Shown here: positions 13,432 to 45,768 of the stretch, one piece after another
How the letters are laid out: each line of letters starts with the position of its first letter
How positions within the stretch are numbered: position 1 is the stretch's first letter
DNA from: an uncultured Chloroflexia bacterium
GTDB taxonomy: Bacteria; Chloroflexota; Limnocylindria; Limnocylindrales; CSP1-4
DNA length: 64,000 nucleotides
Assembly (NCBI GenBank): GCA_963772565.1
Contig: CAVYXU010000004.1
Location: forward strand, 3,886 to 67,885
Direction: 5' to 3'
The notes under the pieces: model-generated
Told to the model about the DNA's origin: nothing
What the model saw: the letters and a program-made list of their open reading frames with translations, nothing else
Databases searched by the model: none
Made by a program: the position numbers and the translations under genes

Positions 13432-15210
<1,779 letters not shown>

Positions 15211-25828: not shown

Positions 25829-26378
25829 GCCGGGTCGACCGACGCGTCGCGGGGACCGGCCGCCTGCCGTTGGCCGCCGCGCCCGAACCTCCGCGCCTTC
25901 GACCTCTCGACCCCCGGCCGGCGGCGACCGTCCGCGGCGCCCGCCAGCCCGACTTCTTCGTGCGCCGCTATTCGTGCGCCGCGGGAGCTGGGCCGGGTCA
26001 CCAAACCGCCTGCCGCCGACCATGTACATGCAGCCGCATACCTCCCAGGCGTACGAGACGTCTTTCGAGGCTCCGACGGCGCCACCCAGGTAGTTCCGCG
26101 TTCAGATTCGGGCCGCGCCGGGGTTTCCATGAACCGGGATATGCGTGGGAGGCGTGTTGCGACTGATTAGGGTCGGTTGAGGAGCAGCGCGCACAGCCCG
26201 GGCCGCTGTTTGCCCGCCCGCTAAACGTGACAGGTATGCGGCGGCAGGTGATCGCGCGTGGTTGCCCGTGCCTGGCCGTGGCCGGCGCCGCGGTCGCCCT
26301 CGCTCGGCCCCGGGCGGCGGCAGGCGGAGGGAGTGCGCTGCGCCGCGGCCCCACCGTCGCGCGACCGGATCGACGCCC

Positions 26379-26384
26379 TACAAT
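26379..26384 (+). promoter_or_regulatory. -10 hexamer TACAAT 6 nt upstream of ATG (leaderless-type)
   Basis: TACAAT-cggcac-ATG. Confidence 0.5.
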
Positions 26385-26390
26385 CGGCAC

Positions 26391-26795
26391 ATGACCGATC
26401 GACCGCTCAAGGTGCTGATCGCGAAGCCCGGGCTTGACGGCCACGACCGAGGCGCCAAGGTCCTCGCGCGGGGCCTGCGTGACGAGGGTTTCGAGGTCGT
26501 CTACACGGGCCTCCGCCAGACGCCCGACATGATCGTGACCGCCGCGCTCCAGGAGGACGTGGACGTCGTGGGCCTGTCGATCCTTTCGGGCGCGCACATG
26601 ACGCTCGTACCGAAGGTCTGCGCGCAGCTCAAGGACCGCGGCCTCGACGACGTGATGGTGACGGTGGGCGGGATCATTCCCGACGAGGACGTGCCGGCGC
26701 TTCGCGAGGCCGGTGTCGCCGCGGTGTTCGGACCCGGGACCACGATCCGCGAGGTGGCCGACTTCATCCGCGCGAACGCGAAGCCGCGCGAGTAG
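26391..26795 (+). CDS. acyl-CoA mutase small subunit (cobalamin-binding domain)
   Basis: [11 protein letters not shown] (DxHxxG B12 motif). 134 aa. Confidence 0.9.
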
Positions 26796-27811
26796 TGGCC
26801 GACGCACCCGAGGACCGCGCGAAGGTCGCCGAGGACCGCGCGAAGGTCCTCGCCGATGCCGCCCGAGCCGGCGACCGACGGGCGCTCGCCCGGTTGCTGA
26901 CGGCGGTCGAGAACCGCACCCCGATCGCGGAGCACGCGATGCGTCGCCTATACCCGCTTGCCGGAGCCGCTCACCTGGTCGGGATCACGGGGCCGCCCGG
27001 CGCGGGAAAATCGACGCTCGTCGCAGCGCTGATCGCGGAGCTCCGACGCGCGGGCCGATCGGCCGCCGTGGTGGCGGTCGACCCTTCATCGCCGATCACC
27101 GGCGGCGCGCTGCTCGGCGATCGCGTCCGGATGCAGGCGTACGCCGCGGACGACGGCGTGTTCATCCGGTCGATGGCCTCGCGGGGGCATGCCGGCGGGC
27201 TCGCCTCGACGTCGACGGCGGCCGCGGCGGTGCTTGACGCGGCCGGGTTCGAGGTCGTCCTGCTCGAGACGGTAGGCACGGGCCAGAGCGAGGTCGAGGT
27301 GGCGGCCGCGGCGGACACGACGGTGGTGCTCGAGTCGCCCGAGATGGGGGACGAGGTCCAGGCGATCAAGGCCGGGCTGCTCGAGGTCGCGGACCTGGTC
27401 GTCGTCAACAAGGGCGACCGGCCGGGTGCCCAGCGGACCGCGGCACAGCTGCGCGCGATGCTGGTCCCGGCCGGTGCGCGCTCCGACGCGGACCCCGCGC
27501 GCCCAGAACCCAAGCACCCCGATGTCCTGATCACGACGGCCTCGACCGGCGACGGCATCCCGGAGCTGCTGGTCGCCCTCGATCGCCATCGTGCGGCCGG
27601 TGGGAGCGGTTCGACCTCGGAGGCGAGGCGAGCCCGTGCGGTCGCGCAGGTCCGCGCGGTGCTCGTCGAGCGCCTGTGGGAGCGGCTCGGCACGCCGGGC
27701 CTGGCCCCGGTCACCGAGGCGCTGGTCGCCGCGGTCGCGGGGCACGAGCTGGATCCATATGCGGCGGCCGATCGCCTCCTGGCCGCCCTCGGAAGCGAGG
27801 ATCGACCATGA
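26795..27811 (+). CDS. meaB: mutase-associated G3E GTPase MeaB/ArgK
   Basis: P-loop GPPGAGKST, and VLLETVGTGQSE. Confidence 0.9.
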   Translation: MADAPEDRAKVAEDRAKVLADAARAGDRRALARLLTAVENRTPIAEHAMRRLYPLAGAAHLVGITGPPGAGKSTLVAALIAELRRAGRSAAVVAVDPSSPITGGALLGDRVRMQAYAADDGVFIRSMASRGHAGGLASTSTAAAAVLDAAGFEVVLLETVGTGQSEVEVAAAADTTVVLESPEMGDEVQAIKAGLLEVADLVVVNKGDRPGAQRTAAQLRAMLVPAGARSDADPARPEPKHPDVLITTASTGDGIPELLVALDRHRAAGGSGSTSEARRARAVAQVRAVLVERLWERLGTPGLAPVTEALVAAVAGHELDPYAAADRLLAALGSEDRP

Positions 27812-32507: not shown

Positions 32508-32582
32508 GGGCGCGTAGCTCAACGGTAGAGCAAGTGACTCTTAATCACTAGGTTCAGGGTTCGAATCCCTGCGCGCTCACCA
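32508..32582 (+). tRNA. tRNA-Lys (anticodon CTT), CCA encoded
   Basis: Hand-folded cloverleaf: 7-bp acceptor stem with one G-U pair, D arm gctc/gagc, anticodon loop cTCTTAa, T arm caggg-ttcgaat-ccctg. Confidence 0.9.
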
Positions 32583-33115: not shown

Positions 33116-36100
33116 CTACTTCTGGAAGTCGAACAGCACCTCGTGTGATGTCCCATCCACGAGTGTGAAGCTCAGCTGCTGGCAGGTCCCGGCCAACGCC
33201 TTGTCGGTCTTCCAGGTGTAGACGTACTGGTCGGCGATCGGGTCATACCGGAGGCTGCCCGTTGCGGCCACGGCGGGGCCGGTCGGGGTCCCATCCGTGC
33301 ACGAGATCGGCGTCGCCGTCGGTCCGCTGGCGAAGATGTCCGAGCCGCGATCGCCGCCGAGGCTGAACTTGACGGGCACGGTCCGGCCAGCCTTGGCGGC
33401 GTTGAATCCCGGCGCCGGGTCGACCGGAGGCCGGAACCCGCTGAACGGGAACGGGATCACGAACGTGGCGACGCCCGGATCGTGATCGCTGGTGCCGCGC
33501 GCGACGTCGCCGGGGTAGTCCGCCGGGAAGTCGCTGTTGATGTGCGCAATCCTGAACTGGTCGAGGTTCGCGAGCATCGAGGGCGTCACGAACATCTGGT
33601 CGAGCGTCTGCGCCATGCCCTGGTACACGTAGGAGTAGGCGGACGCAGGCGCCTGGCCGAGCAGGACCTCCCACAGGTTCTTCAGCCCGAGGGACGGATC
33701 GTAGAGCGCGCCGAGCTGGTCGCTCGAGCCGGCCTGCCCGATCGGCGCGAACGGGTCATCCGGTCGCGGATAGACGTTGAGGTCGCCGCCGACGACGACC
33801 CGGGCATCCGGGTTGGCCTGCTCGAGATAGGCCACCAGCGCGGCGTTGTAGTTGGCCTGCTCGGTGCGGTGGTCGACGCACGCGTCAGGGCCGCTCTTGA
33901 AGTGGTTGTTGACCACGTACACGTCCTGCTGGAGATCGGCGTCGATCCCGGTGCCGTGGATCCGGAACAGGGCGACGCCGGGCGCGCGCGGGAAGACCCA
34001 CGCGGTCTCGCACGCGGAGACGCCGGCCGGCAGCTCGGCGTTGAGGGTCTTGGGGTTGGACACGTCGGCGTCGTACGGGACAGGCGTGTAGCCACCGATC
34101 GCGGGATCGCCGCCCAGGACCGGGTCACCCGCCGGTGGCAGGAGCTCGACCCGGTCGGTGCGGTAGAGGAAGGCCGGGGCGATGCCCCGCAGGTCCGAGC
34201 TGTCGCGGTCGAACGCGGCGTCGTAGGCGGGACCGCCCAGGGCGCTGATCCGAAGCGCGAGCTCCTGGAGCACGTCGGGCTTGCCGTCCGCGTTGTTGGT
34301 CGTGCCGCAGGCGAGGGCTCCGGCCGACACGGTACAGATGTCCTGGTTCTCGACCTCCTGGACCATCAGGATGTCCGGGCTGTGGAGGTCGGTGATGACC
34401 TGGTGCGCGATGTCGCCGAGTCGCGCCTGGTAGGCGGCGTCGCTCGCCGGCACGTAGTCGAACGGCGAGGACACGGCCGCCAGGAACGGGGCGACCCTGG
34501 GACACCCGCTGTCACCGGTGAAGTCGCAGCCGGAGAATGGGTCGTCGCGGTAGTCGTACAGGTTCTCGAGGTTGTAGTCGGCGATGCTGTAGCGCAGGCT
34601 GCGATCGAAGGCCTGCGGCGGGTTGTCGGCCGAAGGGTCGACGCCCTCGTTGAACACCGGCTGCCCGGTGATCTCGATCCGGTACTTGCCGAAGGTGTAG
34701 TTGAGCCCGCCCGATGGGGCGTTGGTGAGCGTATCGAACGTCCGCGCCGGATCGATCAGCGCCTGGCCGTCGGCCTCGGTCGCCTTGATGCCGAGGCTGC
34801 CCAGCAGGATCCGGTATCCGTTGCCATCCCAGCTGGTCGGGTCGTAGTTGTCATCGAGCAGGTGGGCATCGCGGAAGGCACGACGCCAGAACGGGTTCGC
34901 GCGCTGCGCGATCGTGCTGTCGGAACGCGCAACCCAGATCTCGGCATCGGCCGGGTTGAACACGTTTCGACCACCGAGGACGACGCTGCCCGCGGGGGCC
35001 TCCACGCGGCTGCCCTGGAGGCGCTCCCAGTAGCGGTTGGCATCGTCGAGCGCGACCGGCGGGTCCGCGACGGCGGCCGGGACCTCGGCGTCGACGTCGA
35101 CGCCGGTGCGCACGACCTTGAGCAGCCGCAGGCTGCCCAGCTCGGTCATGTTGTAGTACTCGCTGACCCGCCCCGACATGACGACCTCGTCGCCGACCTG
35201 TGGCACGTAGTAGCCGCCACCCGAGACGAGGATGTCGCCGTAGGCACCCATGAACGCGAACAGCCCGTCGGACGTCGTCGCGTCGCCGTCAGCCGTGGCG
35301 GCCGTGTTCTGGAGGAAGAGGCCCTTGTACGTGTTCGCGGAGTTGCTGATCGCCTGCAGGGTGTTCTCGTAGATCACGCCCTGGACGGTCACCGTCTGGC
35401 CGACGTACGGGGACAGGTGCGCGGTCCCGCTGTCCGTGTCGAGGACGGGACCGTTGACCGTCCCGATCGGAAGGATCTCCAGCACGGTGAGCGCGATCGT
35501 CGCGCTTCCGGTGCGCGCCTGGGCGTCGTCGAGCGTGCAAGCGAGGCTCGTCTCCCCGCCGGCCGTGCCGTCGGCGATCGAGGCCTGGAACGAGAACGTG
35601 AGATCGCCGGCGACATCGTCACCGTTGGTGCCGTCGTCGAACAGCGCCTGCGTCGCGGAGCCGCCGATCGCGGTCAGGTCACATGTCACGGCAAGGCCGG
35701 TGCTTGTCGGGGACGACCCCGGCGTCACGGCGACGGTCAGCAGTGTGGTGTCGCCGGCGAACAGGCTGTTCGGGGTTGCGGCGCCGACGCCGTTCGGGTC
35801 CGTGGGACCGGTGCAGCTGTGGAGCGGCGAGGCCGAGTTGCGGGGCGCCGGGGCGTCCGCCGCGAAGTCCGCGCTGTTGTCATCGGTGTCCGTGCAGCCG
35901 CCATTCGCGCGGAGGTCGGCCGTCGTGTTCGACGTCGCCGGTGCCGCGGCCCCGCCCTCGAAGAAGTTCGCGCTGCCCCAGCCGATCAGGTCGACGATCT
36001 GGGCGAGCTGCGACGGAGAGCAGGGGTTGTTGCTGCCGTTACAGCCGAGCGAGTCGGCCGTGTTGGCGAGCGCGACCTTGCCGGCCGTCCCCGACATCGC

Positions 36101-36502
36101 GATCGGGGACGTGTCGGTGATGTCCGGCGTCGGGAGGGCCGTCGTGCCTCCGGATCCCTGCGCTTCCTCGACGAGGATGTACTGGCCGGGCCCGATCGAG
36201 CCGGCGAGCGGCGTGAGCTGGGTGCTGCTCGAACCGAGGTTGCCGGTGCCCGTCGCCGACGCGTACTGGACGGACCAGCCGCTCAATGAGACCGTGGAGG
36301 TCCCGCGGTTGAACAGCTCGATGAAGTCGTTGGTGTACGTCGCACCGCTGTTGCCGCCACCGCCATACACCTGGCTGATCACGACATCGGGTGATGCGGC
36401 AGCGGCCGGGGCGGGTAGTGCCGCCCCTGCCGATCCCGCTATCAGGGCTGCTGCGACGGCGAGAATTCCCGCACGCCTGTAGGCAAGCCGCGCATTCGGC
36501 AT
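33116..36502 (-). CDS. ExeM/NucH-type extracellular nuclease (lamin-tail domain plus endonuclease/exonuclease/phosphatase domain)
   Basis: Signal peptide, then an N-terminal VISQVYGGGGNSGATYTNDFIELFN LTD signature, and a C-terminal EEP region (ILMVQEVEN, GTSDHDP). Confidence 0.85.
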   Translation of the reverse strand: MPNARLAYRRAGILAVAAALIAGSAGAALPAPAAAASPDVVISQVYGGGGNSGATYTNDFIELFNRGTSTVSLSGWSVQYASATGTGNLGSSSTQLTPLAGSIGPGQYILVEEAQGSGGTTALPTPDITDTSPIAMSGTAGKVALANTADSLGCNGSNNPCSPSQLAQIVDLIGWGSANFFEGGAAAPATSNTTADLRANGGCTDTDDNSADFAADAPAPRNSASPLHSCTGPTDPNGVGAATPNSLFAGDTTLLTVAVTPGSSPTSTGLAVTCDLTAIGGSATQALFDDGTNGDDVAGDLTFSFQASIADGTAGGETSLACTLDDAQARTGSATIALTVLEILPIGTVNGPVLDTDSGTAHLSPYVGQTVTVQGVIYENTLQAISNSANTYKGLFLQNTAATADGDATTSDGLFAFMGAYGDILVSGGGYYVPQVGDEVVMSGRVSEYYNMTELGSLRLLKVVRTGVDVDAEVPAAVADPPVALDDANRYWERLQGSRVEAPAGSVVLGGRNVFNPADAEIWVARSDSTIAQRANPFWRRAFRDAHLLDDNYDPTSWDGNGYRILLGSLGIKATEADGQALIDPARTFDTLTNAPSGGLNYTFGKYRIEITGQPVFNEGVDPSADNPPQAFDRSLRYSIADYNLENLYDYRDDPFSGCDFTGDSGCPRVAPFLAAVSSPFDYVPASDAAYQARLGDIAHQVITDLHSPDILMVQEVENQDICTVSAGALACGTTNNADGKPDVLQELALRISALGGPAYDAAFDRDSSDLRGIAPAFLYRTDRVELLPPAGDPVLGGDPAIGGYTPVPYDADVSNPKTLNAELPAGVSACETAWVFPRAPGVALFRIHGTGIDADLQQDVYVVNNHFKSGPDACVDHRTEQANYNAALVAYLEQANPDARVVVGGDLNVYPRPDDPFAPIGQAGSSDQLGALYDPSLGLKNLWEVLLGQAPASAYSYVYQGMAQTLDQMFVTPSMLANLDQFRIAHINSDFPADYPGDVARGTSDHDPGVATFVIPFPFSGFRPPVDPAPGFNAAKAGRTVPVKFSLGGDRGSDIFASGPTATPISCTDGTPTGPAVAATGSLRYDPIADQYVYTWKTDKALAGTCQQLSFTLVDGTSHEVLFDFQK

Positions 36503-36908
36503 GAGTGCCCTCCTCCATTCGCCGATGGTCGGTCGGCCGCAGGGGACGCGGTCGATACCCCGATCCTAGCCCTCAGCGACAACCCTGGCGATCTCGCGAC
36601 GTTGCACCTACGCGGCAAGTGCACGGCCCTGTGTTGCGCTTCCCTGCTGTCGCCCCCGCGCCGGCTCCCCTTGCGTCGATCTCCTCGCATCGCCACCGAC
36701 CCACGTCGGGCCCGACCCTGCCGTCCGACCCGCCTCTCGTAGCCATCCGGGCCCCTGAACCATGCCCTTGGCAGGGCCGGACGGCGACCAGTGGCACGCC
36801 CACCAGGTCCACGCGTCGCCCATAGTCGACACCGGCGTCCCTTGATCACGCTGTGGCCGATGTGGGGCCCCCGGCACCCGCCCGCCGCGGCGAACGAGCG
36901 AGTTTGAC

Positions 36909-38330
36909 GTGATGGCTGACGACGGGCTCTACGCTGCGCTGGTCCGGCGCGGGATGACCCGGCGCTCATTCCTCCAGTTCTCGACCGCCATGGCGGCCGC
37001 CCTTGCGCTGCCAGCCGCATACGCCCCCCGGATCGCGGAGGCCGTGGCCAAGGCGCCCCGGCTGCCGGTGATCTGGCTCCGCGGCCAGGCCTGTGGTGGC
37101 GAGACTGAGGCGTTCCTCCGCGCGTCGGACCCGACGGCCGGATCGCTGCTGCTCGACCTGTTGTCGGTCGAGTACCACGAGACGTTGATGGCCCCGACCG
37201 GCGCCGCCGCCGACCTTGCGAGGACCAGCGCGATGGAGCGCTACCCGAACGGGTACCTGGCGGTGGTCGAGGGTTCGATCCCGACCGGAGCCGGTGGCGC
37301 CTACTGCATGGTGGGCGGTCGCGCGATCGCCGACATCGTGCGCGAGGTGAGCGACGGTGCGCTGGCCACGATCGCGGTCGGCGCGTGCGCGTTCGATGGC
37401 GGCGCCCCTGGCGCCGGCGGCGGCGTGACCGACGCCCGCAGCGTGAGCGAGATCATGTCAGGCGGTGGTCCGCTGATCGCGCTGCCGGGCAGCCCGCTCA
37501 ACGTGGACAACCTTGTCGCGACGATCGTCCACTACCTGACGTTCAACGACTGGCCTGCGACCGACGGCCGGGGCCGCCCCCTGTTCGCCTACGGCCCGTT
37601 GATCCACAACGAATGCGAACGTCGGCCGCATTTCGAGTTCGGGGAGTTCGTGCAGGCATGGGGCGACGAGGGCGCCCAGAAGGGCTGGTGCCTGTACAAG
37701 ATGGGCTGCAAGGGTCCGGAGTCGTTCGGAAACTGCGCGACCCAGCGGTTTGCTGAGGGCACGAGCTGGCCGATCCAGGCCGGGCACGGCTGCATCGGCT
37801 GCACGATGCCGGACTTCTGGGACGCGATGAGCCCGTTCTACCGGAGGCTCCCGTCGCCGGTGCCGTTCTTCCCCAACGTGACTGCGGACGGCGTCGGAAC
37901 TGCCCTGGTGGGCGGGATCGGGGCTGTCGCGGCAGTCCACGGCGCCGGCATGTACCTGCGGACGCGCCGCAACCGTCGTGCTGAGCGGCGAGCCGCCGCA
38001 ACAGCCGCAGCAACAGCCGCCACCGCAACAGCCGATGGGACGCCGGTGGCCGTGTCGGTCCCGGTCGACACAACAGCCGCCCGGGTTCGCGCGGTCTCGC
38101 CTGCACCGGCGACGCCCGAGCCGGTTGCCCCCACCGAGCTGGTCCCAGCCCCGCCGGCCCCGGCCACGCCGGATTCCAGTGATCGCCCCGAGCCGGCAAC
38201 GGTCGAGCCGGCAACGGTCGAGCCGGCAACGGTCGAGCCGGTCCTGGCCACGCCGGAATCCGGCGATCGTCCTGATCCCGCGACGCCCGAGCCGGCCCCG
38301 GCCACCGGCGACGATCCCGAGGCGCGCTGA
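36909..38330 (+). CDS. [NiFe]-hydrogenase small subunit, Tat-exported, membrane-anchored (HyaA-like) with long disordered C-terminal tail
   Basis: RRSFLQF twin-arginine signal. Medial and distal cluster ligands are present (HNEC, WCLY, GCKGP, GNCAT, HGCIGC). C-terminal TM helix followed by about 115 aa of A/T/P/E-rich tail. Confidence 0.95.
   Translation: MMADDGLYAALVRRGMTRRSFLQFSTAMAAALALPAAYAPRIAEAVAKAPRLPVIWLRGQACGGETEAFLRASDPTAGSLLLDLLSVEYHETLMAPTGAAADLARTSAMERYPNGYLAVVEGSIPTGAGGAYCMVGGRAIADIVREVSDGALATIAVGACAFDGGAPGAGGGVTDARSVSEIMSGGGPLIALPGSPLNVDNLVATIVHYLTFNDWPATDGRGRPLFAYGPLIHNECERRPHFEFGEFVQAWGDEGAQKGWCLYKMGCKGPESFGNCATQRFAEGTSWPIQAGHGCIGCTMPDFWDAMSPFYRRLPSPVPFFPNVTADGVGTALVGGIGAVAAVHGAGMYLRTRRNRRAERRAAATAAATAATATADGTPVAVSVPVDTTAARVRAVSPAPATPEPVAPTELVPAPPAPATPDSSDRPEPATVEPATVEPATVEPVLATPESGDRPDPATPEPAPATGDDPEAR
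38190..38243 (+). repeat. 15-bp tandem repeat x3.6 (gagccggcaacggtc) encoding EPATV repeats
   Basis: Perfect tandem copies inside the small-subunit tail. Confidence 0.9.
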
Positions 38331-38331
38331 C

Positions 38332-40107
38332 ATGGCCCGGATCGCCATCGACCCTGTCACCCGCGTAGGCGGCCACCTCCGGATCGAGGCGGACGTCGCC
38401 GCCGGCGAGGTCCGGGATGCGTGGAGCGCCGGGACCATGTTCCGGGGCCTGGAGCTGGTCCTCCGCGGCCGCGATCCCCGCGATGCGTGGATGATCGCCG
38501 ACCGCGTCTGCGGCACCTGCACGGGCGTGCATGCTCTGGCGTCCGTGAGGGCCGTGGAGGACGCGCTGGGCATCACGATCCCGGACAACGCCCGGCTCGT
38601 CCGCAACATCCTCGCGGCCACGCTCGCGGTCCGCGACCACATCGTGCAGTTCTACCTCGCCCAGCTTCCGGACTGGGTCGATGCGACGGTCGCGCTGGGC
38701 GCGGACTCCACCGCTGCCTCGACCCTCGCGCGCTCGATGAGCGACTGGCCGCAGTCCAGCCCGGACTACTTCAGCGGCGTCCGCGACCGGCTGGCCACGG
38801 CAACCTCGTCCGGGCAGGCGGGCCCGTTTGCGCCATCGTTCGCCGGTCATCCGGGCTACCAGCTGTCGCCGGAGCTGAGCCTGGTTCTGCTCGCACACGC
38901 GATCGAGGCGCTCGACTGGCAGCGCGACTTCATGCGGATCCACACGCTGCTGGGCGGCCGCGACCCGCACCCGCAGTCGTACCTCGTCGGCGGCGTCTCG
39001 CTGACGCCGCCCTGGGGCGGCCCGCCTGCACGGCGCGCCGGCGAGCATCCGCAGCTGCCGGACCGCAACACGCCGTCGGCGTTGAGCGATGCGGGCCTCA
39101 CCCTGATCGACAACCTGATCAGCAAGGCCCAGACGTTCATCTCGTGGGTCCTGATGCCCGACGCTCTCCAGCTGGCGCAGGCGTACCCGGACTGGGGCAA
39201 GGTCGGCCGGGGGACGGGCAGCTACCTGGCCTTCGGCGACTACCCGGGCGCGGCCGTCGAGGCCGGCAAGCTGTTCCTGCCGCGAGGTCGGATCCTCGGT
39301 GGCAACCTCGCGTCCCTGTCCGAGATGAACGCGACCTCGGTTGCCGAATCGGTGGCTGCCTCCTGGTATGCCCAGGACGACAGCGATGCCGGCCCGCGCC
39401 AACCCGTCAACGGGCGCACCGACCCGGTGTACTCCGGGCCCCCGCTCCCGCTGGTCTCGCTCGAGGGATCCACCCGGTACAGCTGGCTCAAGGCTCCGCG
39501 CTACAACGACCAGCCGATGGAGGTTGGCCCGCTGGCGCGGATGGCGGTTGCCTACGGCGACGGGCAGGTCGATGTCCGGGCAGCCATGAACACGGCGCTC
39601 ACCACGTTGGGGCTCGAGCCGGCCGCGCTGTTCAGCACCCTGGGCCGGATGGTCGCCAGGGCGGTCGAGACGCGGGTCCTCGCCAGCCAGGCAGGCGACT
39701 GGCTGATCGAGCTGCAGGGGAACCTCGCCGCAGGCGACCTCGCGCTGGTCGATGGCGGCCACTGGGATCCCGGCACCTGGCCCGCGTCGGCAGAAGGCTC
39801 GTCGCTGGGTGAGGGGCCGCGGGGTGCCGTGGGCCACTGGGTGTCGATCCGCGACGGCGTCATCGGCGACTACCAGATCGTCGACGCGACCACGTGGAAC
39901 GCTTCTCCGCGTGATGCCACGGGAACGCGCGGCCCGCTCGAGCAGGCGCTGATCGGCACGCGCGTATCCGACCCGGGCCAGCCGCTGGAGATCCTGCGGA
40001 CCGTCCACTCGTTCGATCCGTGCATGGCCTGTGCCGTCCACGTCTTCGATCCGCGCGCCGGCGGCCCGATCCAGATCCGCGTCAACCGCACGGAGACCGC
40101 CCGATGA
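38332..40107 (+). CDS. [NiFe]-hydrogenase large subunit (group 1, HyaB-like)
   Basis: RVCGTCTGVH and DPCMACAVH Ni-Fe ligand motifs, with a C-terminal extension for protease cleavage. Confidence 0.95.
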   Translation: MARIAIDPVTRVGGHLRIEADVAAGEVRDAWSAGTMFRGLELVLRGRDPRDAWMIADRVCGTCTGVHALASVRAVEDALGITIPDNARLVRNILAATLAVRDHIVQFYLAQLPDWVDATVALGADSTAASTLARSMSDWPQSSPDYFSGVRDRLATATSSGQAGPFAPSFAGHPGYQLSPELSLVLLAHAIEALDWQRDFMRIHTLLGGRDPHPQSYLVGGVSLTPPWGGPPARRAGEHPQLPDRNTPSALSDAGLTLIDNLISKAQTFISWVLMPDALQLAQAYPDWGKVGRGTGSYLAFGDYPGAAVEAGKLFLPRGRILGGNLASLSEMNATSVAESVAASWYAQDDSDAGPRQPVNGRTDPVYSGPPLPLVSLEGSTRYSWLKAPRYNDQPMEVGPLARMAVAYGDGQVDVRAAMNTALTTLGLEPAALFSTLGRMVARAVETRVLASQAGDWLIELQGNLAAGDLALVDGGHWDPGTWPASAEGSSLGEGPRGAVGHWVSIRDGVIGDYQIVDATTWNASPRDATGTRGPLEQALIGTRVSDPGQPLEILRTVHSFDPCMACAVHVFDPRAGGPIQIRVNRTETAR

Positions 40108-40940
40108 CGACCGTCCAGAAGCCGTTGCCGGGCCGTGTCGAGGCGGGGCCGACGCCGCCCGTCCTGCCGGTTCCGTCACCCGCGAGCGGGCTCGACCCTG
40201 TGAAGACACCGCCGCCGGTCGCCGAGGCCGCCCGCCCTGTCGACCGGCCCCACGAGCGCGTTCAGCTGTACGTGTGGCAGATCCCCGTGCGCTTCACCCA
40301 CTGGCTGACCGCCGGCTGCATCGTGGTCCTCAGCGTGACCGGCGGCTATATCGCCGATCCGTTCCTCATCGCGCCCGGCGGCGGCGTGATGACGACGATC
40401 CGGTTGATCCACATCCTCACGGCATTCACCTTCCTCATGTCGGGACTGCTCCGGACCTACTGGCTGCTGGCGGGAAACCGCTTCGCTCGCTGGTCTGCAT
40501 TCATTCCGACCTCGCGCTACCAGGCGATGGAGCTGTTCCGCCAGGCCGGGTTCTACGGCTTCATCCGCAAGGAGATCCCGAAGGTCCTGGGCCACAACCA
40601 GCTGGCCGCGACGGCGTACCTCGCGCTGTTCGCGCTCCTGCTCGTCGAGACCGTCACCGGGTTTGCCCTCGACGGCCTGATGGGGTCGGAGCCCGGTGCG
40701 ACGCTGTTCGGCTGGCTGCGCGAGCTGATGGGTCCGCAGCTGCTCCGCCTGATCCACCACCTCGCGATGTGGGCGATCCTCGCGATCGCGCTGTTCCACG
40801 TGTATAGCTGCGTGCTCGTCGATCACATCGAGAAGAACGGGCTGATGTCGAGCATCTTCAGCGGCTTCAAGTTCCCCACCAGGGAAGAGGTCGTCGAGTC
40901 GCGCGACGGCGGTGCGGACCTCCTGGAGCGCATCGAATGA
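40104..40940 (+). CDS. Ni/Fe-hydrogenase b-type cytochrome subunit (HyaC-like)
   Basis: The start overlaps the upstream stop (ATGA). Four TM helices and an RFTHW motif. Confidence 0.85.
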   Translation: MTTVQKPLPGRVEAGPTPPVLPVPSPASGLDPVKTPPPVAEAARPVDRPHERVQLYVWQIPVRFTHWLTAGCIVVLSVTGGYIADPFLIAPGGGVMTTIRLIHILTAFTFLMSGLLRTYWLLAGNRFARWSAFIPTSRYQAMELFRQAGFYGFIRKEIPKVLGHNQLAATAYLALFALLLVETVTGFALDGLMGSEPGATLFGWLRELMGPQLLRLIHHLAMWAILAIALFHVYSCVLVDHIEKNGLMSSIFSGFKFPTREEVVESRDGGADLLERIE

Positions 40941-41476
40941 CCCGCGGCGACCGCCCGATCGTGGTCATCGGTATCGGCAACGTCCTGCTCGGCGACGACG
41001 GCGTCGGCGTCCGCGCGGTCGAGGCACTGGGCCGGATGGCCGAGGCCGACCCCGGGGTGCTGCCTCGCGGCACTCGACTCCTCGACGGTGGGACGCTCGG
41101 GCTCAATCTTCTGAACGACCTCGACGACGCACGGGCGCTCATCCTGGTCGACGCCGTCGACCTTGGACGTGCGCCGGGAACGGTGAGCGTGATGCGGGGC
41201 GATGAGCTCGCTGTCGCGGACGGTTTCCGGACCCCGTCGCGCCAGGGTGGGGTGGGGGAGCTGCTGGCGACCGCGCGGCTGCTCGCGATCCTGCCGCCTG
41301 ACGTGCTCCTGGTCGGTGTCCAGGCGGGCGCGATCAATGTTGGCCAGGCATTGTCGCGCGAGGTCGCGGCGGCGATGCCTGCGGTGGCCGAGGCCATTCG
41401 GCGCGAAGCCCATGCGCTGGCGGGCTCGAGTCCGTCGTCATCCCGGACCCCGGAGCTGGCAGGAGCGGTCTCATGA
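40937..41476 (+). CDS. hydrogenase maturation endopeptidase (HyaD/HybD family)
   Basis: VIGIGNVLLGDDGVG and LVDAV motifs. The start overlaps the upstream stop. Confidence 0.9.
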   Translation: MTRGDRPIVVIGIGNVLLGDDGVGVRAVEALGRMAEADPGVLPRGTRLLDGGTLGLNLLNDLDDARALILVDAVDLGRAPGTVSVMRGDELAVADGFRTPSRQGGVGELLATARLLAILPPDVLLVGVQAGAINVGQALSREVAAAMPAVAEAIRREAHALAGSSPSSSRTPELAGAVS

Positions 41477-42219
41477 GCACCAGGCTCGACCGGGGGCTGC
41501 GCGCCCTCATCGTTGCGAACTTCGTGGTCGTTGCCGCGCTCGCGGGCCTGATGGTCGGCGGGTGGCTCCAGATCCTCCCGGACCTCGATGCACAGCCCAG
41601 CCCGAGCGCGTCCGCGGCGCCATCGATCGAACTGATGCAGATGGGGCTGGCCCACATCCCGACCTCGAACGACTGCCTCCTGTGCCACGACCAGGGCGGG
41701 GAGGGGGGTCTCAAGCCGATCCCTGCGCTCGGGCATCCGCTCGACGGCTGGGGCGCCTGCCTCGTGTGCCACACCAACGAGGACCTGGGTCGCGCGGCAC
41801 CGGGCCATGAGGACATCGCCCAGTCCGAGTGCCTCAACTGCCACACGGTGGCGCAGCCCGGGCCAGCGATCACGCAGGCGCACTCGGAGCTCAACCAGCC
41901 CTGCCTCGACTGCCACGGCAGCGTTGCCCACCTTCCGTCGAGCATGGTCGGGCGCAACCAGGACGATTGCTGGCTGTGCCACAAGCCGGCGGCGGAGAAG
42001 CCACCCCAGGAGCCGCACCCGAACAACCCGAACCTCACCTGCCGGTCGTGCCACCAGGCGTCGAATGTCGGCGGCCTGCCGATCGACCACGCGCTCCGCG
42101 CCGACGACACGTGCGTCCTGTGCCACGACATGGACCGCCTCGGCGCGACGCCGACGCTGCCCGGCACGAGGCCGACCCTGCCCGCAACGACGCCTGTACC
42201 GCCCGCCGACGGAACCTAG
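41473..42219 (+). CDS. membrane-anchored heptaheme c-type cytochrome
   Basis: N-terminal TM helix then seven CxxCH motifs (CLLCH, CLVCH, CLNCH, CLDCH, CWLCH, CRSCH, CVLCH). Each of motifs 2-7 is preceded by a His 8-18 residues upstream. ATGA overlap with the protease gene. Confidence 0.9.
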   Translation: MSTRLDRGLRALIVANFVVVAALAGLMVGGWLQILPDLDAQPSPSASAAPSIELMQMGLAHIPTSNDCLLCHDQGGEGGLKPIPALGHPLDGWGACLVCHTNEDLGRAAPGHEDIAQSECLNCHTVAQPGPAITQAHSELNQPCLDCHGSVAHLPSSMVGRNQDDCWLCHKPAAEKPPQEPHPNNPNLTCRSCHQASNVGGLPIDHALRADDTCVLCHDMDRLGATPTLPGTRPTLPATTPVPPADGT

Positions 42220-42276
42220 GCAGGCTGCGGTCCATACCACTGTTCAGAGTGCACGTGCGCGCACTAATATCTGGGG

Positions 42277-42705
42277 ATGAACGGATCCTCGGGCAACCTC
42301 ATCCGGGTCGGGCAGGCAGCCGAGATGCTCGGCGTGACCGTCGAGACGCTGCGTCGATGGGAGGCCGAGGGCCGTCTCCGGGTTGAGCGCTCGCCGGGTG
42401 GCCAGCGGCTGGTGCCGGTCGCCGAGGTGACGCGCCTGCTCGCCGAGCGTCGCAACGAGACGGCCGACCGGCCCATCGTCGCGCAGTCGGCGCGCAACCG
42501 GTTCGAGGGCATCATCACCCGCGTCGAGAAGGACCGGGTCGCGGCCGTGGTCGAGGTGCTGGCGGGACCGCACCGCGTGGTCAGCCTGATGACGGCCGAG
42601 GCGGTCGACGAGCTCGGTCTCAAGGTTGGCGACGAGGCCGTGTGCGTCGTCAAGGCGACGAACGTGGTCGTGGAGATCCCGTCGAGGCGCGAGACCCGCG
42701 GATGA
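42277..42705 (+). CDS. MerR/excisionase-type HTH plus TOBE (Mop) domain molybdate-responsive regulator
   Basis: N-terminal IRVGQAAEMLGVTVETLRRW HTH and a C-terminal SARNRFEGIIT...VCVVKATNVVV TOBE domain. Confidence 0.85.
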   Translation: MNGSSGNLIRVGQAAEMLGVTVETLRRWEAEGRLRVERSPGGQRLVPVAEVTRLLAERRNETADRPIVAQSARNRFEGIITRVEKDRVAAVVEVLAGPHRVVSLMTAEAVDELGLKVGDEAVCVVKATNVVVEIPSRRETRG

Positions 42706-44946: not shown

Positions 44947-45015
44947 ACGAGGCCACCGACCGCTCGGTCCGGCATGCTGCCGGAGCGTCTCGCAGCGTCG
45001 TCCCAGGAGCGTCCA

Positions 45016-45768
45016 ATGCAGCACCATCGATTGCGCACACGCTGGCCCCGGCTGGCTGCGATCCTCGCCCTGGTCGCGCTCATCGCCGCCGGCGCGGGCG
45101 TCTGGTACCTGTTCTTCCGGCCGGCCGGGCCTGCGCCGGTCTCGCTGGCGAGCCTGCCACCGATCGGATCGCCGGCTGCGGGATCGCCCGCCGGGTCGGG
45201 TGGTCCGGCTGTCGGGATCACCGGGACCTGGCGGGTGGATCCCTCGATCGGCTCCGTGGCCGACGGGTCTGGTTCGTTCGTGGGCTACCGGGTGCGCGAG
45301 GTGCTGGCGACGATCGGCGCCGCCGAGGCGGTTGGCCGGACGCCCGACGTGACCGGGACGGTCACCATCGAGGGCACGACGATCACGGCGGCGGAGCTCA
45401 CGGCGGACCTGACGACGCTTCGGAGCGACGAGTCGAAGCGCGACCGCCAGCTCTCGCGCCAGGCCATCGAGACCTCGCGGTTCCCGACCGCCACGTTCAC
45501 CCTGACCGCCCCGATCGAGCTCGGTTCCATCCCCGCAGAGGCGCAGATCGTCGACGCCACCGCGACCGGGGGCCTGACGCTCCACGGAGTGACCAGGTCG
45601 GTCGACATCGCGCTGCAGGCGCGCCTCCAGAACGGCGTGATCACGGTCGCGGGCTCGCTCCCGATCGTGTTCGCCGATTTCGGGATCGAGCGGCCGCAGG
45701 CGGGGGCCGTGCTGTCGGTCGAGGACCAGGGCACGATGGAGCTCCAGCTCCAGCTCACCCGGGGCTGA
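45016..45768 (+). CDS. YceI family protein with N-terminal TM anchor
   Basis: Start MQHHRL preceded by AGGAG. YceI-like beta-barrel region (TFTLTAP...LTLHGVT). Confidence 0.8.
   Translation: MQHHRLRTRWPRLAAILALVALIAAGAGVWYLFFRPAGPAPVSLASLPPIGSPAAGSPAGSGGPAVGITGTWRVDPSIGSVADGSGSFVGYRVREVLATIGAAEAVGRTPDVTGTVTIEGTTITAAELTADLTTLRSDESKRDRQLSRQAIETSRFPTATFTLTAPIELGSIPAEAQIVDATATGGLTLHGVTRSVDIALQARLQNGVITVAGSLPIVFADFGIERPQAGAVLSVEDQGTMELQLQLTRG

Follow-up and report, generated by a model that had tools for sequence, protein, structure and literature searches.

How are electrons from H2 routed when a single operon couples a [NiFe] hydrogenase to both a membrane cytochrome b and a multihaem cytochrome c? 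The question is raised by five genes in a 64-kb stretch of DNA (64,000 nt of contig CAVYXU010000004.1, hereafter the window) from an uncultured member of the Limnocylindria (Chloroflexota), a class also called Ellin6529, Edaphomicrobia or RIF-CHLX. They encode, in this order, a hydrogenase small subunit (S), the large, catalytic subunit (L), a cytochrome b (B), a maturation protease (P) and a heptahaem cytochrome c (C); coordinates throughout are those of the + strand of the window (Table 1). Judged by its sequence, the locus is best read as a membrane-bound, uptake-type group 1 [NiFe] hydrogenase exported by twin-arginine translocation (Tat), with a HydABC/HyaABCD-like (group-1f-like) gene order. 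We consider it rather probable that the cytochrome c is a dedicated electron-transfer subunit or partner of this hydrogenase, and have much less confidence in any particular direction of electron flow or acceptor.

A check of the open reading frames in the window recovered all five genes where the preliminary description had placed them, every one on the + strand, and the junctions agreed with it exactly: S and L are separated by a 1-nt gap (TGAcATG), and the L/B, B/P and P/C junctions are ATGA overlaps. Across the clade of relatives, 4-nt overlaps were present at 52/66 L/B, 58/61 B/P and 71/79 (P or B)/C junctions. The same order with 4-nt overlaps in dozens of species is far beyond chance, and the overlaps together with their clade-wide conservation support the earlier view that the block is one expression unit. 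A consensus scan of positions 36400–42400 gave no match to an internal promoter or terminator, a result that is uninformative for a Chloroflexota genome of 72% G+C. Composition is unbroken at the operon, with ~72% G+C across the whole window, and Rfam returned no riboswitch or other RNA near it, the single match being a tRNA at 32508–32579.

The cytochrome c had 441 relatives in a collection of 5.8 billion proteins. The best 120 of these were 59–85% identical, and the few named ones among them belonged to ‘Candidatus Limnocylindrales’ or Chloroflexota metagenome-assembled genomes (MAGs). When one genome per GTDB species was scanned, at least 100 species encoded a relative; 80 loci were kept, almost all from Chloroflexota/Limnocylindria MAGs, and three short contigs among them that bear other labels are probably mis-binned. 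Searches by tblastn with the five window proteins recovered the S-L-B-(P)-C order in every locus with an upstream flank, hydrogenase matches being missing solely where the cytochrome c gene sits at a contig end. For three contigs, of which two are chromosomes of 3.6–4.2 Mb, separate gene calls with precomputed Pfam annotation gave the same block. The preliminary description had considered that relatives might carry the cytochrome c gene without hydrogenase genes; among close relatives (at least 52% identity) for which a flank exists, we saw none. It had also considered that the synteny might be common and already characterized: common it is, in at least 100 species genomes, but we found no characterization of it. 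Flanking genes are conserved in part, with a same-strand phosphoribosyltransferase gene in 31/55 loci, a YceI gene in 23/55 and a trypsin-like protease gene in 35/55, as would suit a locus passed on vertically at a stable chromosomal site and not a mobile island. Inherited vertically and present throughout the class, the operon is no rarity.

A sub-clade of ten loci has no protease gene in the block (L059, L061, L062, L070, L072, L078 and L080; also L028, L057 and L082). In the window, the large subunit bears a 21-amino-acid C-terminal extension beyond His570 and the operon supplies a HyaD-type endopeptidase gene; in 7 of the 10 protease-less loci there is no such extension, the last residue of the large subunit being the His or Gln of the L2 motif. 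Protease and substrate tail thus appear to have been lost together. The cytochrome c gene was kept, in most of the ten with a direct overlap with the cytochrome b gene; re-coupled in this way after loss of the protease, it is the more indispensable of the two. By this pattern, the cytochrome c behaves as a core component rather than as a hitch-hiker behind an accessory gene.

Rates of evolution were compared as the ratio of non-synonymous to synonymous substitution (dN/dS) between the window genes and their three closest relatives. Values were 0.07–0.11 for the small subunit, 0.17–0.22 for the large subunit, 0.12–0.20 for cytochrome b, 0.18–0.35 for the protease and 0.10–0.20 for cytochrome c, the last being similar to the small subunit and cytochrome b; these low values indicate purifying selection on all five genes. 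Among the four structural proteins of 55 loci, mean p-distance was highest for the large subunit (0.445) and lowest for cytochrome c (0.34), whose pairwise distances correlate with those of the small subunit (r = 0.69) and the large subunit (r = 0.73).

The cytochrome c comprises a short positive N-terminus, a transmembrane (TM) helix, a Pro/Ser/Ala linker, a 160-residue haem domain and a variable Pro/Thr-rich tail, with mean column identities of 0.76 for the helix, 0.52 for the linker, 0.84 for the haem domain and 0.31 for the tail. Its seven CxxCH motifs lie at residues 68, 96, 120, 144, 166, 190 and 214, and CxxxCH and CxxxxCH motifs are absent from the protein. Seven further invariant His (61, 88, 112, 137, 153, 182 and 206) each stand 6–12 residues ahead of a CxxCH. 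The simplest reading of these motifs is seven bis-His low-spin electron-transfer haems, and with every haem so ligated and no open site, the protein would be a wire and not a catalytic site. The preliminary description pictured a soluble c3-type protein; this needs correction, as the cytochrome is predicted to be anchored in the membrane by its N-terminal helix. AlphaFold2 (AF2) modelled residues 2–34 as a helix with a predicted local distance difference test score (pLDDT) of 81–98, and R10, L12, N16 and L23 within it are invariant. Given these invariant polar or charged residues and a conservation above that of the linker, the helix probably packs specifically on the membrane subunits and is not a passive anchor. 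A 21-nt in-frame repeat (2.6 copies, window 42141–42194) lies in the Pro/Thr-rich C-tail, the length of which varies among relatives.

The cytochrome b scored 132.9 bits against TIGR02125 (cut-off 121.5) and also matched Ni_hydr_CYTB. It has four predicted TM helices after a variable, Pro-rich N-terminus of ~55 residues. At least 95% of 71 sequences keep His66, His103, His218/219 and His232, which is the usual pattern for a putative dihaem protein. The small subunit matched TAT_signal, Oxidored_q6 and NiFe_hyd_SSU_C in Pfam and TIGR00391 (387 bits); its listed start codon is GTG, and an in-frame ATG at 36912 fits the MADDGLY start of relatives. Its Tat signal scored 21.4 bits with PF10518, just below the cut-off, and 22.1 bits with TIGR01409, above it, and the RRSFL motif indicates that the S-L dimer is probably exported to the outer membrane face. 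His344 in its C-terminal TM helix is conserved in at least 95% of sequences. Beyond this helix runs a cytoplasmic, low-complexity Pro/Ala/Thr/Glu tail that is of variable length or absent in relatives, the whole subunit measuring 346–473 amino acids across the clade. The His-bearing helix and the cytochrome b resemble the HydA/HydC arrangement of Wolinella (10.1101/2021.04.15.440034).

Does the hydrogenase itself look competent? In protein searches, the best 120 matches listed all fell within the clade. The best solved relatives of the large subunit were 3myr_B from Allochromatium vinosum (3MYR, group 1e; E = 6.6e-153; 46% identity) and, of group 1d, 4c3o_A (Salmonella Hyd-5, 4C3O) and Escherichia coli Hyd-1 (3UQY). 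We aligned the motifs of 63 large subunits, one of them truncated N-terminally, and 58 small subunits of the clade. The Ni-binding Cys (C60 and C63 in the L1 motif RxCGxC; C564 and C567 in the L2 motif PCxxC) were kept in 62/62 covering sequences. In the same 62/62, the proton-relay Glu of RxEGH (E28 of E. coli Hyd-1) was missing and G, N, S or D stood instead; the neighbouring His was also variable. The canopy Arg of PRGxxxH was Gly (PRG to PGG) in about 8/63 large subunits, and the Asp of DPCxxCxxH was replaced in most members by A, N, S, V or G, mostly A or N.

The small subunits depart from the canonical pattern at one iron–sulfur cluster. Ligands of the distal (His and three Cys) and medial (three Cys) clusters were retained across the clade. 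At the proximal cluster, the second Cys was replaced in 58/58 sequences by Asn (the commonest), Asp, Glu or Ser, and the fourth was retained in 55/58 relatives, Ser being found in the window, in its closest relative (L004) and independently in L062. Most members thus offer three Cys and N, D or E, and the window two Cys, Glu and Ser. The proximal cluster may be a 3Fe cluster or one with a non-Cys (carboxylate or amide) ligand. Taken together, these features make the enzyme appear functional yet non-canonical for group 1, with a putatively altered proton path and a three-Cys proximal cluster, and the clade-wide departures from canonical signature residues speak for the distinct hydrogenase lineage suggested earlier.

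Which known system does the operon come closest to? With HydABC/HyaABC(D) enzymes (Wolinella succinogenes HydABC, E. coli Hyd-1) it shares the S-L-B-P gene order, a Tat-exported small subunit with a His-bearing C-terminal TM helix, a four-helix dihaem cytochrome b, a HyaD-type protease, and a large subunit that has the RxCGxC and PCxxCxxH motifs and ends in a cleavable extension. It differs from them in an extra, obligatory heptahaem cytochrome c gene, in the change of the RxEGH Glu to Gly, in the replaced second proximal Cys, in having no hyaE/F or hyp genes attached in the window, and in sequence, the closest solved large subunit being only 46% identical. Assignment to group 1d fails because the motif is ACGGE and not CTCC, so that the six-Cys proximal [4Fe-3S] cluster is absent and there is no supernumerary Cys. 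We also rejected groups 1h, 1l and 1m, high-affinity oxidizers of atmospheric H2 that are reported from Limnocylindria/Ellin6529 or comparable soils: the 1h structure 5aa5_C matched weakly (E = 3.5e-30 against 6.6e-153 for 1e/1d enzymes), and 1l and 1m are 1h-like with different gene clusters.

Group 1f, a polyphyletic and poorly studied class, is described in HydDB as ‘oxygen-protecting’ and possibly feeding the reduction of reactive oxygen species (ROS) (PMC5037454; PMC6896113), and is present in Chloroflexota and in aerobes (PMC6776052). In the group 1f synton-3 of Frankia (hupS-hupL-hupC-hupD), the small subunit has 410–420 amino acids (PMC11879354). The operon shares with it the S-L-cytochrome-protease order and the unusually long small subunit, a likeness by description only; in contrast, no multihaem cytochrome c is reported for 1f operons in the literature examined.

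The periplasmic [NiFe] hydrogenase of Desulfovibrio passes electrons to type I cytochrome c3 and on to Qrc/NrfD-type quinone reductases. A low-potential bis-His multihaem c as acceptor for a group 1 hydrogenase facing the periplasm would be common to both systems, and weak c3/c7 Pfam matches are found here. The Desulfovibrio-type pairing of a soluble enzyme with a soluble tetrahaem c3 was nevertheless rejected, the locus having a TM-anchored small subunit, a cytochrome b, and seven haems with a TM helix.

The pairing of cytochromes b and c has its nearest parallel outside hydrogenases. Geobacter sulfurreducens CbcBA joins a dihaem b ‘related to [NiFe] hydrogenase’ to a membrane-anchored seven-haem c (10.1101/2021.04.15.440034), and Geobacter CbcL is a b-c fusion with nine haems c (PMC6295460); both have a cytochrome b of the hydrogenase/FdnI-like type and are inner-membrane quinone:cytochrome c oxidoreductases for extracellular electron transfer (10.1101/2021.04.15.440034; PMC6295460). 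The likeness, a dihaem b gene adjoining or overlapping a heptahaem c gene, is one of architecture only. The Geobacter modules carry no hydrogenase, and the cytochrome b here holds all four His itself. The preliminary description did not recognize an operon with both cytochromes as a known architecture. This stands as far as hydrogenases go, no hydrogenase operon with a cytochrome b and a multihaem c having been found, but not for the b and c pairing, which CbcBA and CbcL already display. Searchable full-text literature yielded no description of a hydrogenase operon with both cytochromes, although few subscription journals were covered and an earlier description is possible; no comparable operon is described in the literature on hydrogenases and c cytochromes of Ignicoccus and Pyrodictium. 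Hydrogenase with b, b with multihaem c and hydrogenase with c3 are each known separately, and we therefore regard the locus as a new combination of a known kind.

Relatives of the cytochrome c point to the same membrane context. Curated families offered only generic multihaem domains (Pfam PF14537, PF14522 and PF09699, just over their cut-offs), and NCBIfam only sub-threshold decahaem matches. Clustering at 50% placed the whole hydrogenase-linked family under one representative, and the next relatives (E about 1e-43) were octahaem proteins. The genes of these overlap an NrfD gene that precedes them, lie in operons of the order multihaem, 4Fe-4S, NrfD and multihaem, or are fused to NrfD. We observed such loci at L087:4720-8813, L088, L089 and L084-L086 (proteins P0255, P0264 and P0334), with a small protein, a multihaem c, a 4Fe-4S protein, NrfD and the octahaem c, and in other cases a fusion to the NrfD C-terminus. 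These operons, which resemble Qrc in their multihaem, Fe-S and NrfD content, are putatively unannotated Qrc/ACIII-like quinone modules. Another protein, P0328 (663 amino acids), fuses a PF01292 cytochrome b to twelve c-haems. By gene context, the wider family is consistently tied to predicted quinone-reactive membrane modules. Two further candidates were rejected: P0270, a cytochrome b-c fusion that would have served as a Rosetta-stone link, comes from a locus frameshifted in all four genes (L090), and P0242 is a wrong-frame artefact.

In the reading that we favour, H2 would be oxidized at the Ni-Fe site, and its electrons would travel through the small subunit's three Fe-S clusters to the b haems. 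From cytochrome b they would either reduce menaquinone or run along the seven c-haems and leave the cytoplasmic membrane on its outer side, probably for a c-type branch that ends in a terminal oxidase, or for an acceptor in the cell wall or outside the cell. The b and c pair would then act like a split bc quinone oxidoreductase of the CbcBA/CbcL type with a docked hydrogenase. On the Cbc analogy, the module could also take electrons from menaquinol in the absence of H2, or operate in the opposite direction. A bolder reading, which we hold to be somewhat less likely than not, is that the operon defines a new group 1 subgroup, a four-subunit ‘hydrogenase-bc’ complex of S, L, dihaem b and heptahaem c. 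In these abundant soil Chloroflexota it would deliver H2 electrons both to a c-haem wire (leading to a terminal oxidase or extracellular acceptors) and to menaquinone, with an active site lacking the Glu relay and a three-Cys proximal cluster that may be of high potential. We know of no cultured host. The host class is reported to be monoderm and mostly aerobic, nearly all its genomes encoding cytochrome c oxidases (10.1101/2021.08.23.457424), which would make a tethered multihaem protein a sensible route to another complex or to the cell wall without a soluble carrier.

Several observations weigh against the favoured reading. The canonical proton-relay Glu is missing clade-wide, the canopy Arg and the Asp are missing in parts, and most members have only three Cys ligands left at the proximal cluster, the window only two; because of these losses, normal H2 turnover is not assured. 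Within the block, conservation is lowest in the large subunit. A Pfam scan of the 5 operon genes and 45 further genes found no hyp maturation genes in the window, as the preliminary description had reported of the same stretch. For the cytochrome c there is no solved homologue, the best profile match among PDB sequences (E = 0.015) not being credible, and the AF2 model from a 32-sequence alignment had a pLDDT of 52.6 and is confident at the TM helix only. Its anchor helix is N-terminal, unlike that of CbcA, which is C-terminal. We infer the physical S, L, B and C complex and its branch point from sequence and synteny; which way electrons flow, and to what acceptor, is pure inference.

An unlikely alternative is that the cytochrome c serves the enzyme as a reservoir or sink of electrons, keeping it reduced or discharging H2 electrons onto O2 or ROS at the outer membrane face. 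Its hosts are mostly aerobes, the enzyme has no six-Cys proximal cluster of the group 1d kind, so that another form of O2 protection would be useful, and seven haems could store seven electrons; the annotation of group 1f as possibly feeding ROS reduction (PMC5037454; PMC6896113) points the same way. Against such a role, all seven haems have an invariant distal His, leaving no evident open site for O2 or peroxide, and nothing peroxidase-like occurs among nearby window genes. It would also leave the ties of the cytochrome's relatives to NrfD quinone modules unexplained.

It is quite improbable, too, that S and L are a degenerate hydrogenase, now a sensor or a structural or redox scaffold, with the conserved part of the operon being a quinol:cytochrome c module of b and c. 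The loss of the proton-relay Glu and second proximal Cys throughout, and of the canopy Arg and DPCxxCxxH Asp in part, would fit such decay, as would a large subunit that is the most divergent protein next to cytochromes b and c as the most conserved. Yet the four Ni-binding Cys and the distal His/Cys3 and medial Cys3 ligands are all retained, the large subunit is under clear purifying selection (dN/dS as above), and the Tat signal is kept. The protease gene and the C-terminal extension, moreover, were lost jointly and not at random, which implies that the maturation pathway is still under selection. That the cytochrome c is a passenger of unrelated respiratory function, merely sharing a transcript, is very unlikely: genes after the protease gene in hya/hup operons are accessory and not structural (as in textbook hyaABCDEF) and distant cytochrome relatives pair with NrfD modules instead of hydrogenases, but the gene is associated with a hydrogenase in 100% of loci with a usable upstream flank, overlaps its neighbour by 4 nt at most junctions, was re-coupled to cytochrome b on protease loss and shows distances correlated with those of the hydrogenase subunits, all in a block that stays constant among variable flanking genes.

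Limnocylindria are among the dominant uncultured soil lineages of Chloroflexota (PMC6776052) and average ~5% of some Antarctic soil communities (10.1101/2020.08.06.239558). Their H2 metabolism has so far been framed around 1h/1l-type enzymes. A further hydrogenase, spread across the class and equipped with a multihaem wire of its own, would change the picture of how H2 electrons enter respiration in these monoderm bacteria. The clade would also be a natural test of whether the proton-relay Glu and a four-Cys proximal cluster are truly indispensable, and would provide bioelectrochemistry with a hydrogenase natively wired by a haem chain. It would also connect research on uptake hydrogenases with that on extracellular electron transfer through CbcBA/CbcL-type quinone-cytochrome c modules, two fields usually kept separate.

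Table 1 Features of the hydrogenase operon, with positions in the 64-kb window.
Feature	Position	Strand	Details and basis
[NiFe]-hydrogenase small subunit (S)	36909..38330	+	473 aa; Pfam and NCBIfam
Twin-arginine motif RRSFL, residues 18-22 of S	36960..36974	+	Pfam/NCBIfam
Glu65 codon of S, second proximal-cluster Cys position (canonical ECTGC; here ACGGE)	37101..37103	+	Alignment to 1h2a_S, 5xvb_S, 6ehq_S
Ser195 codon of S, fourth proximal-cluster Cys position (canonical GCPPNP; here PGSPLN)	37491..37493	+	Alignment to solved small subunits
C-terminal TM helix of S, residues 332-350, with His344	37902..37958	+	Hydropathy, conservation
Perfect 15-nt tandem repeat, 3.5 copies, (PATVE)n, in tail of S	38189..38241	+	In-frame repeat
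[NiFe]-hydrogenase large (catalytic) subunit (L)	38332..40107	+	591 aa; PF00374 (NiFeSe_Hases), 587 bits
Gly13 codon of L, proton-relay Glu position of RxEGH (here TRVGGH)	38368..38370	+	Alignment to 3myr_B, 4c3o_A (TRIEGH)
HyaC/HydC-type cytochrome b (B)	40104..40940	+	278 aa; PF01292, 92.6 bits; TIGR02125
HyaD/HybD-type maturation endopeptidase (P)	40937..41476	+	179 aa; PF01750 (HycI), TIGR00072
Predicted membrane-anchored heptahaem cytochrome c (C)	41473..42219	+	248 aa; seven CxxCH; generic multihaem Pfam
N-terminal TM helix of C, ~residues 8-34	41494..41574	+	AF2, hydropathy, conservation
Haem domain of C, residues 57-220, seven ~24-residue units H-x6-12-CxxCH	41641..42132	+	Motifs, conservation

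Upstream of the operon lie, in order, methylmalonyl-CoA mutase/MeaB genes, genes for a 3-hydroxyacyl-CoA dehydrogenase, a thiolase and an aldehyde dehydrogenase, the tRNA mentioned above and, on the − strand at 33116–36502, a gene for a secreted lamin-tail/endonuclease-exonuclease-phosphatase protein of 1,128 amino acids. Present in only 2/55 related loci, this last gene is taken to be an insertion by the tRNA. Genes for the methylmalonyl-CoA mutase large subunit, its B12-binding domain and MeaB occur at two sites ~11 kb apart (13432–15210 and 26262–27811); the MeaB GTPase adjoining the mutase genes is the window's single, weak match of the CobW/HypB type. Downstream are genes for a MerR/TOBE regulator, ModA- and ModB-like transport proteins, a phosphoribosyltransferase, YceI, a trypsin-like protease, a two-component system and carbamoyl-phosphate synthase.

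Some minor observations concern individual loci. The hydrogenase genes are split over two or three frames in several long-read MAG loci (L047, L052, L055, L065, L068 and L090:4600-9400), in L090 with all four genes affected; such breaks reflect either homopolymer assembly error or true pseudogenization. The YceI-like secreted protein of the window (44974–45768), of a polyisoprenoid/quinone-binding type, is encoded on the same strand 1–3 kb downstream of the operon in the 23 loci counted above. In E. coli, yceI is co-operonic with a cytochrome b561 of the PF01292 family, and by analogy a functional link between YceI and the cytochrome b is conceivable. In locus L001, ~4 kb downstream of the operon (L001:14196-16994), we found genes for a ferric-reductase-like flavocytochrome, an FMN_bind protein and an ApbE flavin transferase, a set that the window lacks and that resembles what monoderm bacteria use for flavin-based extracellular electron transfer.

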